Shown here in pieces: positions 3,290 to 59,312 of a stretch of DNA of 64,000 bases. Both the position numbers and the translations under genes were made by a program. Source of the stretch: a phage. The DNA is taken from the NCBI GenBank assembly GCA_018015315.1, contig GCA_018015315.1_3629.1. One strand, 5' to 3'. How positions within the stretch are numbered: position 1 is the first letter of the stretch; the number at the start of each line of letters is the position of its first letter. The notes under the pieces were generated by a model. The model had not been told where the DNA came from. It saw nothing but the letters and a program-made list of their open reading frames with translations, and made no database searches.

Positions 3290-3553
3290 ATGGCAACAGA
3301 GTTAAAATTTGCATCAAACCGTAAAACTAAGAAGTATCTGTCCTCAGTAGCTCCAGGCACTGTGGTGATGTTTGTTGATGAACTTGGGGATGTGAATACA
3401 GCACTTGTTGTAAAATCACATCCTGCAAACATATATGTTGGGGTATTTGACCTGTTCAGAAAGGTGTTTGTAGAACTACCTCACAGTTTGGTTGTTACAG
3501 AAATGGATGCCTGCATAGAAATTCTTGGCGAAGTTATGGTGGAGGAACAATAA
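3290..3553 (+). CDS. small hypothetical protein, paralog 1 of a tandem array of four
   Basis: 87 aa; GAGGAGG RBS upstream; shares size and motifs (GTVV..., V.E.D..I.ILGE) with the next three ORFs. Confidence 0.6.
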   Translation: MATELKFASNRKTKKYLSSVAPGTVVMFVDELGDVNTALVVKSHPANIYVGVFDLFRKVFVELPHSLVVTEMDACIEILGEVMVEEQ

Positions 3554-53309: not shown

Positions 53310-54857
53310 TTAGATAAAACGCTTGAACATAGAAGGTGATGAGATTGATGGAATCACACAAGGAAGTGCTACCTCCTCTTTCTCCAGGAAATTAATTGCA
53401 GAAGCTACACAGTCAGCCCAGTCGTCTTTTCTGTTAAATGTTGATCTTTCCCCGTTGAATTTTTCAAGTTCGGTCAGAAATGCTTCCAGAGTATCAGGAT
53501 GGAAACTGGATTTTACAATCCTCACCATCCCTTGTTGGGCAAGATTGGCAAAAGGTGAGAACCTTGTCAGTTTAGACTTGTTGGAAGGCATTGGGTCTTC
53601 TTCAACCCTGAACCCTTCTGCGAGCAAGGATCTGGATGAGGTTAAGAACTCACTCTTACCTGCCTGACCAGGGTCCACAGAGAATACGATTATACAATCA
53701 TCACCATCAAACTGCGCCTGTTTCCTGATGATCACATCTCGTTCACCAGCCTTTTTACAGAACTTGCCTTCCAGACCTGTGGAATACCTCCCGTCATCCA
53801 CGTTTTCAGGACAATAATCCCCTGACAGGTAATAAAATCCGTCGCTATCTTTACTTACCTTAACACTGGCGGTAAAGTCAGGAAATTTATTACCGGAAGT
53901 TCTCTCGGTTCCTGCCTTATCCCATGCCCTGCAAGATACTGATCCAAGGGGTACTCTATCGGCATCACGAAGGAAAGATCTTTGAAAATAGTTTGCACCC
54001 TCAGGCTTTGCAAACCAGTTACCATGGAGAAGCTGAGCTTTTTCCAGCTCTGGTAGACCTTCGAGGAAAGCAAGGTATTCTGGGTTGTCTCTCAAACAGA
54101 CAGGATTATCGAATATTGTTGCGCCTATGAACGAGAATGACAACGGTCTTGGCTTGATCTCCACACCCAGTCCGTTAACCGTGGTGTATTTCTCTATCAA
54201 CTCTTCCTTAGAGTCTCCCCAAATAAATTCACCGTCGCGTCGGATAAAATATCTTTTCTTACCACATTTCTCCGGATCTGGATACCCTTCATCGTCCAAC
54301 CACCATCTAACCAGTTTGGCAAGCATGTGTTCTGAATCAGGGTTACAGCTGATAACCATCCTTGATGGATACTTTGACTGAGATCGCAGACGAGACATCA
54401 GGTAGTCTATCTGCTCCCATTCGAACTGCGTGCCCTCATCGAAGCAAACCATGGTGTACTCAAGCCCCTGATGGTTAAGCTTATCTTGTACATACTCCAT
54501 GTGGCAGTATTTTACAACAGCTCCCTTTTTGCTTCTATCCCACTTGCCAGTGCTCGGATCAAACCGTGGAAAAATGAACTTATGATCCTTCTCTCTAAAC
54601 TTTGGCTTAATGTTTTCAGGCAGATCACTATAAATAGCTACTGCTTTAGGCCATAGTCCACCCTCACCTTCCAACTGCGGGGTTGTTCTTCGGAACATAA
54701 CCACAGAGCTGTGGGGGTCATCAATAATTTTAAGCGGCATCAACTGCAAGAGGAACGACTTGCCAGACCCTGCGGCACCGCCGATTACCAAAATATCTGC
54801 ATCGTTTTCGAGGATCATCTTCTGCTTTTCAGAACACGGTCCGTAAATCTTAGACAT
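53310..54857 (-). CDS. terL: terminase large subunit
   Basis: Walker A (VIGGAAGSGKS) near the N-terminus, Walker B-like hhhhDE (MVCFDEG), acidic C-terminal nuclease-like domain; 515 aa. Confidence 0.85.
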   Translation of the reverse strand: MSKIYGPCSEKQKMILENDADILVIGGAAGSGKSFLLQLMPLKIIDDPHSSVVMFRRTTPQLEGEGGLWPKAVAIYSDLPENIKPKFREKDHKFIFPRFDPSTGKWDRSKKGAVVKYCHMEYVQDKLNHQGLEYTMVCFDEGTQFEWEQIDYLMSRLRSQSKYPSRMVISCNPDSEHMLAKLVRWWLDDEGYPDPEKCGKKRYFIRRDGEFIWGDSKEELIEKYTTVNGLGVEIKPRPLSFSFIGATIFDNPVCLRDNPEYLAFLEGLPELEKAQLLHGNWFAKPEGANYFQRSFLRDADRVPLGSVSCRAWDKAGTERTSGNKFPDFTASVKVSKDSDGFYYLSGDYCPENVDDGRYSTGLEGKFCKKAGERDVIIRKQAQFDGDDCIIVFSVDPGQAGKSEFLTSSRSLLAEGFRVEEDPMPSNKSKLTRFSPFANLAQQGMVRIVKSSFHPDTLEAFLTELEKFNGERSTFNRKDDWADCVASAINFLEKEEVALPCVIPSISSPSMFKRFI

Positions 54858-55960: not shown

Positions 55961-56037
55961 TGGTCTCCACGGAGTGATTCGAACACTCGACCTCCTGATC
56001 CCAAATCAGGCGCTCTACCAAGCTGAGCTACGCGGAG
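55961..56037 (-). tRNA. tRNA-Pro (anticodon UGG)
   Basis: Hand-folded cloverleaf: acceptor CTCCGCG/CGTGGAG, D-stem GCTC/GAGC, anticodon stem CCTGA/TCAGG, loop TTTGGGA, T-arm GAGTG-TTCGAAT-CACTC, CCA encoded. Confidence 0.75.
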
Positions 56038-56048
56038 TATTTACTATT

Positions 56049-56123
56049 TGGTGGCCCTGGGTGGAATTGAACCACCGTCTGGCGATTATGAGTCGCTTGC
56101 TTGAACCTTCCAGCTACAGGGCC
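56049..56123 (-). tRNA. tRNA-Met (anticodon CAU; could be Ile-lysidine type)
   Basis: Acceptor GGCCCTG/CAGGGCC, anticodon loop CTCATAA, T-arm GGTGG-TTCAATT-CCACC, CCA encoded; D-stem only 3 bp. Confidence 0.65.
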
Positions 56124-56124
56124 T

Positions 56125-56200
56125 TGGTGCTGATGGCAGGACTTGAACCTGCAACATATTGATTACAAATCAATTGCACTACCAATTGTGCTACATCAGC
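56125..56200 (-). tRNA. tRNA-Thr (anticodon UGU)
   Basis: Perfect cloverleaf: acceptor GCTGATG/CATCAGC, D-stem GCAC/GTGC, anticodon stem ATTGA/TCAAT, loop TTTGTAA, T-arm GCAGG-TTCAAGT-CCTGC, CCA. Confidence 0.8.
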
Positions 56201-56205
56201 AAAAA

Positions 56206-56304
56206 GGTGCTAGGTGATGGAATCGAACCATCTATGTATTCAACGACTACCTCGTCTATTTTCAGGATTAAAAATCCTCGCCCTTGCCAAAGGGCTTACC
56301 TAGC
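56206..56304 (-). tRNA. atypical tRNA-like gene (possible anticodon UUU, ~30-nt extra region)
   Basis: Perfect acceptor (GCTAGGT/ACCTAGC), D-arm (GCCC-TTTGGCAA-GGGC) and T-arm (GATGG-TTCGATT-CCATC), but 4-bp anticodon stem and an unusually long region before the T-arm. Confidence 0.4.
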
Positions 56305-56402
56305 TCAGTATGTTGACCATGTTGCTAGTCGGCGATGACGACTGTAACATTTGATAATCCGGTTCTGCTTCCGGCTTTCGCTTAATTACAAGGTCAACAA
56401 TG

Positions 56403-56493
56403 TGGCAGAGGATAATGGAATCGAACCATCATCGAGTCATCCTCAACGGGACGGTTTTCAAGACCGCTTGAGCACCATTGCTCCCTACCCTCT
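56403..56493 (-). tRNA. tRNA-Ser (anticodon UGA), long variable arm
   Basis: Anticodon arm GCGGT-CTTGAAA-ACCGT, variable-arm hairpin, T-arm GATGG-TTCGATT-CCATT, acceptor AGAGGGT/ATCCTCT with one G-U pair, CCA encoded; D-arm spacing unusual. Confidence 0.6.
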
Positions 56494-56610
56494 TTTATTA
56501 TAAACAATACTGATAATGACACTGATTTTCGAGCAGTTAGTGACTAGTATAAACGACGATAAATACCAATGCCATTATCTGTATGATTTATGCATCTAAA
56601 AATATAAATT

Positions 56611-56697
56611 TGGTGGGGAGTGGTGGAGTCGAACCACCCGAGTCGCAATGACAATAGATTTACAGTCTACACCGCTACCTCTACGGGATAACTCCCC
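56611..56697 (-). tRNA. tRNA-Tyr (anticodon GUA), long variable arm
   Basis: Acceptor GGGGAGT/ACTCCCC, anticodon arm GTAGA-CTGTAAA-TCTAT, T-arm GGTGG-TTCGACT-CCACC, CCA encoded. Confidence 0.7.
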
Positions 56698-56701
56698 AAT
56701 T

Positions 56702-56776
56702 TGGCACCCCGTACTGGACTCGAACCAGTGTCAACGGCTTAGAAGGCCGCTGCTTTATCCACTAAGCTAACAGGGC
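56702..56776 (-). tRNA. tRNA-Arg (anticodon UCU)
   Basis: D-stem GCTT/AAGC, anticodon arm GCGGC-CTTCTAA-GCCGT, T-arm ACTGG-TTCGAGT-CCAGT, CCA encoded. Confidence 0.75.
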
Positions 56777-56872
56777 ACTGGGTGGCTTTCTTTTACACCT
56801 TAGCCGCCAGAAAAGGTGGGAGACCATGTTTACAATATTACACTGTTAAGCAAAGTTTGTCAAGAAAATATT

Positions 56873-57211
56873 TTAGCTATTGCTAACAGGCTGTATTTCT
56901 GTGGTGAATGGCATAAAAGGTGCTGGTTTTTCAGCCTCTTCTACTACCACCTCTTCCTCTTCACCAAACATCTCATCATATTCTTCCTGCATTCGGTCTG
57001 CCTTATCAAGAACATACTCTGCAATGCTTTGACGAATATTTTGTTTGGTTTTCGGGTCCAACATCAGCTCTCTTAGAACTTTGTGAGCTTCTGGAACCAT
57101 CGCTATAAAAGATTCCTTCATATCAAGGATGTTCTTCTCTAGCTGAATGGCGTTGGACTCCTCTTTCAGAGGTCTGCCTCTACGGCGACGCTTTTTAGTT
57201 GTATCCGCCAT
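56873..57211 (-). CDS. small protein with basic N-terminus and acidic C-terminus
   Basis: Start at the internal ATG (MADTTKKRRRRGRP) with GGAGG RBS, 25 bp downstream of a consensus promoter. Confidence 0.55.
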   Translation of the reverse strand: MADTTKKRRRRGRPLKEESNAIQLEKNILDMKESFIAMVPEAHKVLRELMLDPKTKQNIRQSIAEYVLDKADRMQEEYDEMFGEEEEVVVEEAEKPAPFMPFTTEIQPVSNS

Positions 57212-57239
57212 GTTTCCTCCATTATCACGTGATAGGTGG

Positions 57240-57268
57240 ATTTTATCATAGCAAATACTGATTGTCAA
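57240..57268 (-). promoter_or_regulatory. near-consensus sigma70 promoter
   Basis: Minus strand: TTGACA (57263-57268), 17-bp spacer, TAAAAT (57240-57245). Confidence 0.6.
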
Positions 57269-57555
57269 GTTCGCCGCAGGGTGGTATTCCCTGCGACTTG
57301 TCCAGCGTCCTGGACCAGCAAGACCCAACAAGTGGGTTACCAGAGCCCATTACCGCGCTTTGGCTAGACCTTATTACAGGTTGGCTGGGGTCACATCGTC
57401 ATGTGCTGGCTGCCCCTACCATTTTAAGTGTGGTGCACTATCAAGCTCTCTAAGGGGAACTCAGCCTTCTCCGAACCCTGTTTCAAAGCATCCGGAGATA
57501 AAGCCATCAAATTCATCTTTAAATTGGATATTCATCATGATACACGAAAACAACC

Positions 57556-57798
57556 TCATTGTAAAGCACAAATAAATAAAACATACTTAATTTGTTTGTT
57601 ATCAGGCTCAGGGTAGAAGTAGAAGATCTTGCTATCACCGATCTGAACACCACCATCCCAACAGCATAGCCCATAACCCGTATTCATACAAGCTAAGTCG
57701 TTGGCAAAATCTATTGCATCATCCAGTGCACGAAATTCACCTTCATCTTCTAAATAATCCTCATTCATGGAACGAAAAACGAGCTTAACCTTAAACAT
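57556..57798 (-). CDS. hypothetical protein
   Basis: 80-aa ORF. Confidence 0.45.
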   Translation of the reverse strand: MFKVKLVFRSMNEDYLEDEGEFRALDDAIDFANDLACMNTGYGLCCWDGGVQIGDSKIFYFYPEPDNKQIKYVLFICALQ

Positions 57799-57874
57799 AG
57801 CATTACCTGTAGACCTCGTAAGTTAAAATTGTATCACATCATATTGCAGATCTTATCAGGTAACATTATTTTTG

Positions 57875-58084
57875 TCAACAGATTCCGGCCTTATCTCGCC
57901 TGTCTGTGTATTCTTTAATCGCAACCTCATCTGCATTAGTGACCAGGTCTTCAAAGTAACTCTCAAGCTCCTCGTCAATGTCAGGAGACCAGCCCTTTTT
58001 CCTGTCAGTGTGAATCGCAGACTTGTTAAACTTAGTACAGTTCTTTGCTACCGGATTGTTCATTAAGCACCCCTCAGCGTTCAT
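57875..58084 (-). CDS. hypothetical protein
   Basis: 69-aa ORF overlapping the upstream gene end by 11 nt. Confidence 0.4.
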   Translation of the reverse strand: MNAEGCLMNNPVAKNCTKFNKSAIHTDRKKGWSPDIDEELESYFEDLVTNADEVAIKEYTDRRDKAGIC

Positions 58085-58652
58085 AGTAAATCTTATTTAA
58101 CATTACCTCATCCTTTGCAGAAAGGATATCTAGATATGCATCACCGAATCTACCTGCAACAACCTCTGCATGATACATCACTTCGTTAATATCGTCAAGA
58201 GTGATAACTGGATGACCGTATCTCTCTGAGTATTGTCTCAGAGTGCGATGTAGGGAGTCATCATCATAGGCAGACTTTTTAATATCACAAACACGACGAA
58301 TAGCCTTGATGTCGAAAAACCCTGTACGATACCAACCAAGAAAAAGGTTTCGTGCAGTGTCAACATCTACATCAATACCATTAAGAACCTTATCTACAAG
58401 ATAGCTGTCATCCTTTGGACCAGCTTCCTTAGTGCGAATGTAGTTGCCATCTTTTCCAGGTGACATCTCCTTCTCATCACCAACCTGCATGCCATCATTT
58501 GGCGGTGTTAGCCACTTATCCGGATGCTTACGATCACGAGCGTTAGAATGATTACGCTGGAAACCAGGCTTCCACTTGAAAGTTTTCTCCATCTGTTCTT
58601 CATTCTGATAACGTTTTGCAATCTTTTCACGGTCATCTTTGCGTGAACCCAT
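58074..58652 (-). CDS. hypothetical protein
   Basis: 192-aa ORF with GAGGAGG RBS. Confidence 0.55.
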   Translation of the reverse strand: MGSRKDDREKIAKRYQNEEQMEKTFKWKPGFQRNHSNARDRKHPDKWLTPPNDGMQVGDEKEMSPGKDGNYIRTKEAGPKDDSYLVDKVLNGIDVDVDTARNLFLGWYRTGFFDIKAIRRVCDIKKSAYDDDSLHRTLRQYSERYGHPVITLDDINEVMYHAEVVAGRFGDAYLDILSAKDEVMLNKIYYER

Positions 58653-58780
58653 AGCTGCCTCCTCTTCAAGTTATAGAAAAACTCACTGTATCACTTTGTA
58701 ACGAGCTTTTCTATCAAACTGGTGCGATTGCATTACCTGGTATAGTTTATATAGCTGTGGAGCGATTTAGGGGCCTTCTT

Positions 58781-59025
58781 GTCAGTTTCCACACATAAAC
58801 TTCATCCAAGCTCGCGCGGGAGACTCTCAACCGACTCCTTACGGCGCTGGCAAGCTTTCGTCGGTGGTCCACATCAGTGCTCGGCCTTTGGCCTGCGCTA
58901 TCGCTTCGCTCCCACACATGTTAACAGACCTGCATGTATGCACTTCTGTTATTGTGTGCACCAAGGAGGCCCGGCATCTCGCCCATCGTAGGCGAGTGCC
59001 AATGAAGGGCCGACACTACCTATAG
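58781..59025. ncRNA. candidate structured non-coding RNA (GC-rich island, strand unknown)
   Basis: About 245 bp of GC-rich sequence in an AT-rich intergenic gap; ends can pair (GGCCTTC...GAAGGGCC); several internal hairpins; no credible ORF or RBS. Confidence 0.3.
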
Positions 59026-59155
59026 TAAGTAATAATTTTAAAACATGGTACTTAGGATCTAGTATATTCTACATAAGTTAAGTATATGTACTTAGTACCA
59101 TAAGTACTAGATCTTTTATTTTTTATTATTTAGTTATTTTAGTTATATTCTTTAT

Positions 59156-59236
59156 GTGTCCGTATCACGGACAGTTAGTGTCCGTATTACGGGCAGATGT
59201 GTCCGCGTGACGGACAGTAGTGTCCGTATCACGGAC
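59156..59236. repeat. array of four palindromic iterons (TGTCCGT-NNN-ACGGACA)
   Basis: Units start at 59156, 59178, 59199, 59220 (21-22 bp periodicity); units 1 and 4 identical, 2 and 3 differ by 1-2 bases; beside an AT-rich stretch with inverted repeats (GATCTAGTA 59055-59063 / TACTAGATC 59104-59112). Confidence 0.7.
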
Positions 59237-59312
59237 AGTTACTGACCTCTGTTCCAGAGCGAACATAAAACATACGAATCCTTATAGTACAGATATTTAA
59301 GTTTTTACTGGT

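Follow-up and report, generated by a model that had tools for sequence, protein, structure and literature searches.

What, if anything, is encoded by the GC-rich spacer that precedes the tRNA genes in this phage genome? The window, the whole 64,000-nucleotide stretch of DNA that was analysed, is 99.4% identical to Escherichia phage rV5 (Vequintavirus) and carries its genes on the minus strand. In the transcribed order, ORF75 is followed by the spacer, promoter P74, ORF74, a tRNA promoter and seven tRNAs. A preliminary description of the locus had placed a GC-rich, non-coding island with hairpins and no long minus-strand ORF at 57300-57555, and had suggested a structured RNA there by analogy with the stable RNAs of phage T4. 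From upstream to downstream, the features of the region are:

57556-57798, minus strand: ORF75, the upstream neighbour of the spacer
57537-57565, minus strand: sigma-70-like promoter match, TTTACA-17-TATCAT (10/12 in a consensus scan)
57461-57559, minus strand: gene for a 32-aa protein, separate from the RNA (phrog_6828, E=5.5e-9)
57417-57460, minus strand: 5' leader of the RNA, a hairpin CCCCUUAGAGAG plus CUUGAUAGUGCACCACACUUAAAAUGGUA, conserved in rV5-type and L051/L074/L076-type phages
57334-57416, minus strand: SroH-like RNA core of 83 nt (stem S1, pseudoknot strands, closing helix C1, hairpins Pa and Pb), matched by covariance model R1
57323-57337, minus strand: 3' hairpin H1, with compensatory changes in variant L029 and deleted in L100
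57300-57315, minus strand: 3' hairpin H2, loop GACG, with compensatory changes in variant L029
57275-57295, minus strand: 3' hairpin H3, the one noted in the preliminary description
57240-57268, minus strand: promoter P74, TTGACA-17-TAAAAT, annotated in rV5 (11/12 in the scan)
56873-57211, minus strand: ORF74, with an annotated ATG and a GGAGG ribosome-binding site at 57211
55961-56776, minus strand: seven tRNA calls (ARAGORN and the Rfam tRNA model)

The composition of the spacer is as had been described, with a GC content of 0.50-0.54 over 57200-57500 versus about 0.40 in the flanks. The range also lacks a convincing long minus-strand ORF, as a mechanically called 152-aa ORF (56873-57331) is merely ORF74 stretched upstream to a TTG. 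Most of 57300-57555 is indeed non-coding, but 57461-57559 is the 32-aa gene, and the truly non-coding block therefore shrinks to about 57213-57460. The ATG of this small gene overlaps the stop codon of ORF75 (ATGA), the gene is annotated in phage nomo, and relatives differ in it by synonymous changes only. The hairpin that had been quoted, CAGGG-TGGTATTC-CCTG, exists as CGCAGGG/CCCTGCG but lies at 57275-57295, just outside the range given for the island, and is a peripheral element, the conserved core being elsewhere. Within 57213-57560, ARAGORN and the Rfam tRNA model find neither a cloverleaf nor a tmRNA. The 32-aa protein has a conserved motif, KDEFDGF, and in phages of the L074 group its gene is cut to eight codons (MKDEFDGF) with a strong ribosome-binding site ahead.

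Positions 57334-57416 are, with little room for doubt, a real structured RNA homologous to the core of the bacterial small RNA SroH. Covariance model R1 has its sole match in the 64-kb window at these positions on the minus strand (84.2 bits, E=2.5e-20). The elements of the core, from 5' to 3' in the RNA, are:

57387-57416, minus strand: stem S1, GGGG (57413-57416) with CCCC (57387-57390), from covariation
57406-57409, minus strand: 5' strand of the pseudoknot, CCAG, in the S1 internal loop, complement of 57340-57343
57392-57405, minus strand: inner hairpin, inside S1 together with the internal loop CAG-CCAG
57383-57386, minus strand: 5' strand of closing helix C1, AGCC, pairing with GGCU at 57344-57347
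57368-57382, minus strand: A57382 (partner U57349) and hairpin Pa, ACCU (57378-57381), loop GUAAUA (57372-57377) and AGGU (57368-57371), from covariation and invariance
57348-57367, minus strand: junction of C-U-A, mini-hairpin Pb, GGUAA, U57349 and bulged G57348, from invariant columns
57355-57364, minus strand: mini-hairpin Pb, two G-C pairs (57363-57364 with 57355-57356) and loop CAAAGC
57350-57354, minus strand: the conserved GGUAA of the junction
57344-57347, minus strand: 3' strand of C1, GGCU, pairing with AGCC at 57383-57386
57340-57343, minus strand: 3' strand of the pseudoknot, CUGG, directly after C1, complement of 57406-57409

In the structural model, C1, the 57382:57349 pair and the ACCU/AGGU helix of Pa make up one continuous stack with G57348 bulged. 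An 18-nt insert, consisting of C-N-A, the 2-bp mini-hairpin and GGUAA, protrudes from this C1/Pa stack. S1 stacks on C1, and the S1 loop and the four nucleotides after C1 most likely make an H-type pseudoknot.

The comparative data behind this fold come from two sets of sequences: a 23-sequence MAFFT alignment that was not fitted to any structure, and a set of 43 sequences aligned to the model. In the MAFFT alignment, 99.7% of cells pair, as against 81.5% after shuffling and 17-44% when partners are slid, and double-sided changes occur in 8 of 14 pairs. In the larger set the paired fraction is 97.6%, compensatory changes affect 11 of the 15 pairs, and the covariation score (0.627 versus 0.169) was reached by none of 500 shuffles. 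All five S1 pairs change in a compensatory manner among the 43 sequences, giving variants such as GGGG/CCCC, GGGAA/UUCCC, GUGUAU/AUACAC, GAGUG/CACUC and GGAUG/CAUCC, among others. Every pair of C1 covaries (CG 29/GC 12; CG 29/GC 6/UA 6; GU/AU/CG/UA), as do the 57382:57349 pair (AU 30, UA 7, CG 3, GC 1, UG 1) and the second pair of Pb (CG 33, GC 5, UA 4). The Pa helix is invariant except in the second copy of contig L197 (A:U to G:C) and in a plasmid copy (U:A to A:U), while its loop varies in both sequence and length. For the pseudoknot, a permutation test returned sums at least as high as that observed in 4 of 5000 cases, and the complementary strands differ by lineage (CCAG:CUGG, CAGA:UCUG, CGGA:UCCG, CGGU:GCCG, UGAGG:CCUCA, CCGG:CCGG). 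Additionally, G-U pairs are seen in the minus-strand sense only, which indicates that the folded strand is the transcribed strand.

Single-sequence folding of the minus strand gives unremarkable z-scores (-2.1 for 57213-57560 and -1.5 for 57270-57460), which are uninformative alone, so that the case rests on the comparative data. Conserved secondary structure was a check that the preliminary description had named for an RNA near the tRNA cluster, and the covariation in both sets answers it strongly in the affirmative. Its analogy with T4 fares differently. The T4 RNAs rnaC and rnaD resemble the present element as small non-coding RNAs associated with a phage tRNA cluster, but they share neither sequence nor structure with it and do not contain the core; they are unrelated, and in T4 both R1 and BLAST find only an element between denV and vs.8.

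Searches with Rfam, at the gathering threshold and at E<=10, returned nothing in the flagged spacer, with only tRNAs and chance matches elsewhere. The riboswitch and self-cleaving ribozyme classes among the Rfam 15 covariance models likewise gave no match at E<=10. A lead from CGCGGUAAU, mimicry of the 530 loop of 16S rRNA, was rejected: local alignment to the rrn operon was no better than with shuffled sequences, and the covariance model finds nothing in the rRNA operon.

On either side of the core, the 5' leader and the three 3' hairpins (57275-57337) are conserved within the Vequintavirinae. In the L051/L074/L076-type phages a consensus sigma-70 promoter, TTGACA-17-TATACT, lies directly upstream of the 5' leader. 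In the window, the putative promoter at 57537-57565 is upstream of the RNA, within the junction of ORF75 and the 32-aa gene, and P74 is the 3'-side boundary of the RNA block; the consensus promoter scan has no match inside the core. No minus-strand terminator was found by scanning 56700-58000, H1-H3 having no U-tract terminator after them.

About 40 metagenome loci, together with the chromosomes of E. coli, Shigella and E. albertii, have the same core within SroH (Rfam RF00372). A model built from phage sequences only (R2) matches E. coli sroH with 54.1 bits (E=2e-12) and nothing in the rRNA operon. In the opposite direction, the Rfam sroH model, which annotates no structure but the terminator, scores 201 bits on E. 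coli, 90.6 bits on a jumbo-phage contig (L182; gathering score 80), 49 bits on L174 and 45 bits on L143. On the window (56700-59300) it gives no match even at E<=10, the 80-bit gathering threshold being unmet. By these reciprocal model matches, the window element is a distant relative of the SroH core despite its failure at the Rfam threshold. It shares with SroH the architecture of S1, internal loop, pseudoknot, C1, Pa and Pb and all invariant junction nucleotides. It differs in the sequences of S1, C1 and the pseudoknot, and lacks the 5' hairpin, the Rho-independent terminator and the yjaZ neighbour of SroH. An SroH gene stands alone between a promoter and a Rho-independent terminator of its own, whereas the window copy has a promoter-like site and no terminator. 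Terminators of their own are present at the 3' ends of the E. coli, L182, L143 and L174 copies.

SroH itself is an experimentally detected small RNA, seen by Northern blot and RNA-seq (PMC5389530; bioRxiv 10.64898/2025.12.22.696124), with a full-length species of 161 nt in E. coli (Rfam RF00372; PMC5389530). It is polyadenylated and bound by PNPase, and is thus a target of RNA-decay enzymes (PMC5389530; PMC13572404), and it is enriched in Hfq PAR-CLIP (PMC13572404; PMC5389530; bioRxiv 10.1101/2020.06.29.178624). There is also a report of kbl as an in vitro target (PMC6172242). Stationary-phase induction, a patchy distribution across E. coli lineages and the envelope-stress sensitivity of a deletion mutant are described among the same body of reports (PMC5389530; PMC13572404; PMC3318445; bioRxiv 10.1101/2020.06.29.178624; 10.64898/2025.12.22.696124). 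Nothing in the searchable literature reports phage homologues of SroH, its fold or an SroH-YjaZ module, or describes yjaZ as a toxin. As a covariation-supported intergenic phage motif, the element is akin to those in catalogues of phage structured RNAs, and the large catalogue of RNA candidates in PMC10690425 could include it anonymously; a named description of the motif, SroH homology or yjaZ linkage was not found in that paper, whose supplementary data lay outside the search. Through the present comparison, E. coli SroH acquires, 20 years on from its discovery, a large family, a defined fold and a candidate for its protein partner.

Among phages, the core is far more common than the spacer around it. 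When the spacer is searched by BLAST against 50,697 phage records, a 43-nt core (57346-57388) is recovered in 584, comprising 119 Vequintavirus records that match over the full length and about 465, mostly T4-like, in which only this 43-nt stretch is conserved, at about 91-93% identity. T4-like records have it in one place each, between vs.8 and either denV or an internal-protein gene. The copy in T4 itself (L036 1349-1439, equal to NC_000866 64848-64938; 80-81 bits) lies between denV and vs.8 and is annotated in the reference as the N-terminus of vs.8 (NP_049732), the annotated start being inside the RNA. In RB3 a 1-nt indel breaks the frame of this vs.8 extension across the element; since relatives break the frame, the true start of vs.8 is probably the downstream ATGAGAACA. 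T4, the best-studied phage, carries an unrecognised structured RNA annotated as coding sequence.

Collections of viral, metagenome and genome sequences, scanned for the pattern, yielded further members. They include the N4-like Klebsiella phage Pylas, Escherichia phage Ivi, jumbo-phage contigs (L005/L103, L107, L182), marine contigs (L077, L098), further Tevenvirinae-type contigs and the Vequintavirinae-like group L051/L074/L076. Sequences held out of the R1 seed score 47-64 bits. Many loose-pattern matches were discarded as coding false positives (KKKVESKFGKD in 43-kb contigs), and by BLAST the elements of L182 and of the L074 type have no close relatives among cultured phages. In L005, L107, L022, L023, L030 and Pylas the RNA lies in or beside a tRNA cluster on the same strand, so that one class of otherwise puzzling non-coding spacers near phage tRNA clusters is explained. 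Some T4-like contigs of 172-177 kb carry a tandem second copy (L216 9104-9187, L197 5085-5167), and in these diverged copies the mini-hairpin loop has 5 nt (CCGCG) while Pa and Pb differ by compensatory changes. In L022 (1150-1381, plus strand) the order of the strands is altered: the element opens with the stretch that runs from AGGUC to GGUAAUG-GGU, and about 115 nt separate this from the GCC-AACCU strand, which immediately precedes a tRNA-Gly. This RNA, the sole example of its kind at 22.7 bits, is apparently circularly permuted, with the Pa helix open and C1 closed.

Several loci around these members show features of their own. In Pylas, a stretch of about 1 kb that comes after the tRNA cluster (L155, 66770-67787) has no annotated gene and contains the RNA. 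In the Pylas-related contigs L023 and L030, ATTTCCGTTGTGACGAA-like direct repeats flank the RNA and may be promoters or processing signals. Directly after the RNA of L107, at about 3410-3494 on the minus strand, is a tRNA-like sequence, GCGTGATGATAGTTCAG...GATTCACGCC, that ARAGORN does not call and that may be an unusual or suppressor tRNA.

In bacteria, the RNA has a constant companion. E. coli sroH is convergent with yjaZ, and among 5426 complete E. coli genomes the two are co-present, sroH in 3740 and yjaZ in 3738. Homologues of YjaZ (PF27200) have a scattered distribution that takes in Aeromonas, Oceanimonas, Thiolinea, cyanobacteria and the chromosomes and plasmids of enterobacteria. The RNA is convergent with yjaZ, on the opposite strand and 40-55 nt beyond its stop codon, in the loci from a plasmid, Aeromonas, Oceanimonas, Thiolinea and two cyanobacteria, and the phage-only model recovers every one of these RNAs. 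Altogether the RNA adjoins yjaZ in 7 of the 7 bacterial lineages tested, from Enterobacteria to cyanobacteria. In L143, the RNA and its terminator are upstream of a co-directional YjaZ-like ORF (33% identity), so that the linkage is independent of antisense overlap. YjaZ has 179 residues and a weakly RelE/ParE-toxin-like fold; searches of a local copy of Pfam, PADLOC and PDB sequences gave no match, and Foldseek against PDB gave nothing significant. No homologue was found in the 50,697 phage records, nor, by tblastn, was a YjaZ-like ORF found in the window or the phage loci examined. The plasmid modules (L253-L255, L259) lie among ParA-like, ArdC anti-restriction, TraJ, IS1 and S24-peptidase genes, and the Aeromonas module adjoins an HP1-like prophage gene; such neighbourhoods are of the kind typical of mobile accessory or defence cargo.

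The best explanation of the locus, to which we assign a probability of roughly 45%, is an orphan phage copy of the SroH core acting as a decoy for YjaZ-family proteins. About 57272-57460, the core with its flanking hairpins, holds a diverged copy of the SroH core domain that has no protein partner beside it. In this proposal, the RNA, which has no terminator of its own, would be made early in rV5, either within the transcript of ORF75 and the 32-aa gene or from the promoter-like site at 57565-57537. SroH and YjaZ would constitute an RNA-protein, toxin-antitoxin-like module in bacteria. Acting in trans, the phage RNA might occupy the RNA-binding site of host YjaZ-family proteins, either as a mimic of the RNA component of the module or as an extra supply of it, and might keep the protein harmless once host transcription stops. 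The points counted in favour, besides the fold and the homology to SroH, are the linkage of RNA and yjaZ, the phages with the RNA only, the tandem phage copies and the targeting of SroH by RNA-decay enzymes. Whereas the fold, the homology, the linkage and the absence of yjaZ from phages are established by the comparisons, we infer transcription in rV5, binding of the RNA to YjaZ, toxicity of YjaZ and the decoy role.

A precedent for such a decoy exists in type III toxin-antitoxin (ToxIN) systems, where, in the work of Blower et al., a phage pseudo-ToxI RNA reportedly neutralises ToxN. The likeness lies in a pseudoknotted RNA genetically coupled to a protein of about 170-180 residues, in phages that carry RNA-only look-alikes, with tandem copies in some, and in the order of RNA, terminator and protein gene in L143. 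On the other hand, there is no similarity in sequence or by Rfam, YjaZ is not ToxN-like, with weak fold matches to RelE/ParE toxins, and the SroH-type RNA of bacteria occurs as a single copy, in most cases convergent with the protein gene. The type III layout of tandem repeats, co-directional genes and a terminator before the toxin is not seen in E. coli, plasmids, Aeromonas or cyanobacteria, all single-copy and convergent; the co-directional order occurs only in L143.

The usual convergent arrangement, unlike that of classical type III loci, counts against a decoy. So does the fact that toxicity of YjaZ, its binding by SroH and the restriction of phages are steps that we infer, with no match to YjaZ in PADLOC or Pfam. 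The location in tRNA clusters of several phages is, moreover, left unexplained by the decoy idea. If YjaZ reads S1, C1 and the pseudoknot, the phage RNAs might not bind it, because these sequences differ from those of the bacterial RNAs. The more far-reaching version, in which SroH-YjaZ is an unrecognised toxin-antitoxin or abortive-infection module and unrelated virulent phages have each acquired the core as an anti-defence decoy, is doubtful on present evidence. The module would then extend beyond Enterobacteria and their plasmids as far as cyanobacteria, with decoys in T4-like, rV5-like, N4-like and jumbo phages, an extent that we put forward as speculative. The analysis itself defines SroH-YjaZ as a testable RNA-protein module with hallmarks of toxin-antitoxin or defence systems, and an RNA-only counter-measure common to several unrelated phage families is plausible. 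If decoys in unrelated phages are real, they would rank among the most widespread RNA-based counter-defence elements, with T4 itself among the carriers.

Of the other explanations, the one that survives best is a trans-acting homologue of the SroH core that works independently of YjaZ, for instance by binding a different conserved host factor such as PNPase, Hfq, a translation factor or an RNase, or by base-pairing through a seed of invariant single-stranded nucleotides. The PNPase binding, polyadenylation and Hfq PAR-CLIP enrichment of SroH (PMC13572404; PMC5389530; bioRxiv 10.1101/2020.06.29.178624) and the reported kbl target (PMC6172242) point this way, and the position inside the tRNA clusters of several phages hints at a connection with translation or the processing of RNA. 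We nevertheless consider it unlikely, as a yjaZ linkage that crosses phyla in all seven lineages is hard to explain without a functional tie. For a linear seed in particular, an invariant junction with a variable periphery fits recognition of a folded pocket better.

A cis-acting leader, that is, a riboswitch, attenuator or element of stability or translation serving ORF74 and the tRNA operon in rV5 and vs.8 in T4, has to be considered since the RNA is terminator-less and set in a polycistronic context in both phages, on the same strand as its neighbours and directly upstream of ORFs. The strong promoter P74, which separates the RNA from ORF74, the downstream genes (ORF74, vs.8, tRNAs or none), which share no family, and the bacterial and jumbo-phage copies, which stand alone with their own terminators (E. 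coli, L182, L143, L174), weaken this reading to the point of improbability. The convergence of the bacterial RNA with its neighbour gene also disfavours it.

A new class of small self-cleaving ribozyme, or an RNA-processing element that cuts polycistronic or tRNA-containing transcripts, is a slim prospect. About 24 invariant nucleotides concentrated at a three-way junction with a pseudoknot, amid a variable periphery, are what such an RNA might look like, and the apparent permutation in L022, the tandem copies, the adjacency to tRNAs and the lack of a fixed downstream gene are consistent with it. Yet no Rfam ribozyme family matches even at E<=10, E. coli SroH is found as a full-length 161-nt species, strict pairing with yjaZ would be unexpected, and the permuted example is a single one of 22.7 bits.

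That there is no RNA gene, and that the spacer holds small ORFs, a DNA-level signal (a promoter or stem-loop cassette or a recombination site) or a chance fluctuation in GC, is scarcely credible. In its favour, the T4 record makes the element the N-terminus of vs.8, mechanical ORFs exist (for example 34 aa at 57246-57350) and the hypervariable internal-protein locus adjoins the element in T4-like phages. Against it, the vs.8 frame is broken in RB3 and has no start codon in rV5, a 1-nt insertion in L013 cuts the 34-aa ORF short, the core has no promoter match, the stem substitutions are compensatory and the G-U pairs are strand-specific.

Three other stretches of the window deserve mention. A second GC-rich island at 58700-59300 reaches 0.57 at 58750-59000 and is followed by a very AT-rich stretch (0.25); it spans the 56-aa ORF78 and a 378-nt gap, has tandem repeats annotated in some records, and is conserved within Vequintavirus only. 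A weak Rfam match there to rli43 (22.8 bits) looks like chance. At 56206-56304 on the minus strand, in a gap between trnT and trnS that the rV5 record leaves without annotation, ARAGORN places a tRNA of 99 nt whose anticodon has four bases (atcc) and which scores 37.5 bits with the Rfam tRNA model; this tRNA may contain an intron or resemble a frameshift suppressor. Finally, the large terminase of rV5, ORF64ABC (about 53310-54857 of the window and upstream), is joined from three pieces in the rV5 record, which implies intervening sequences in terL.
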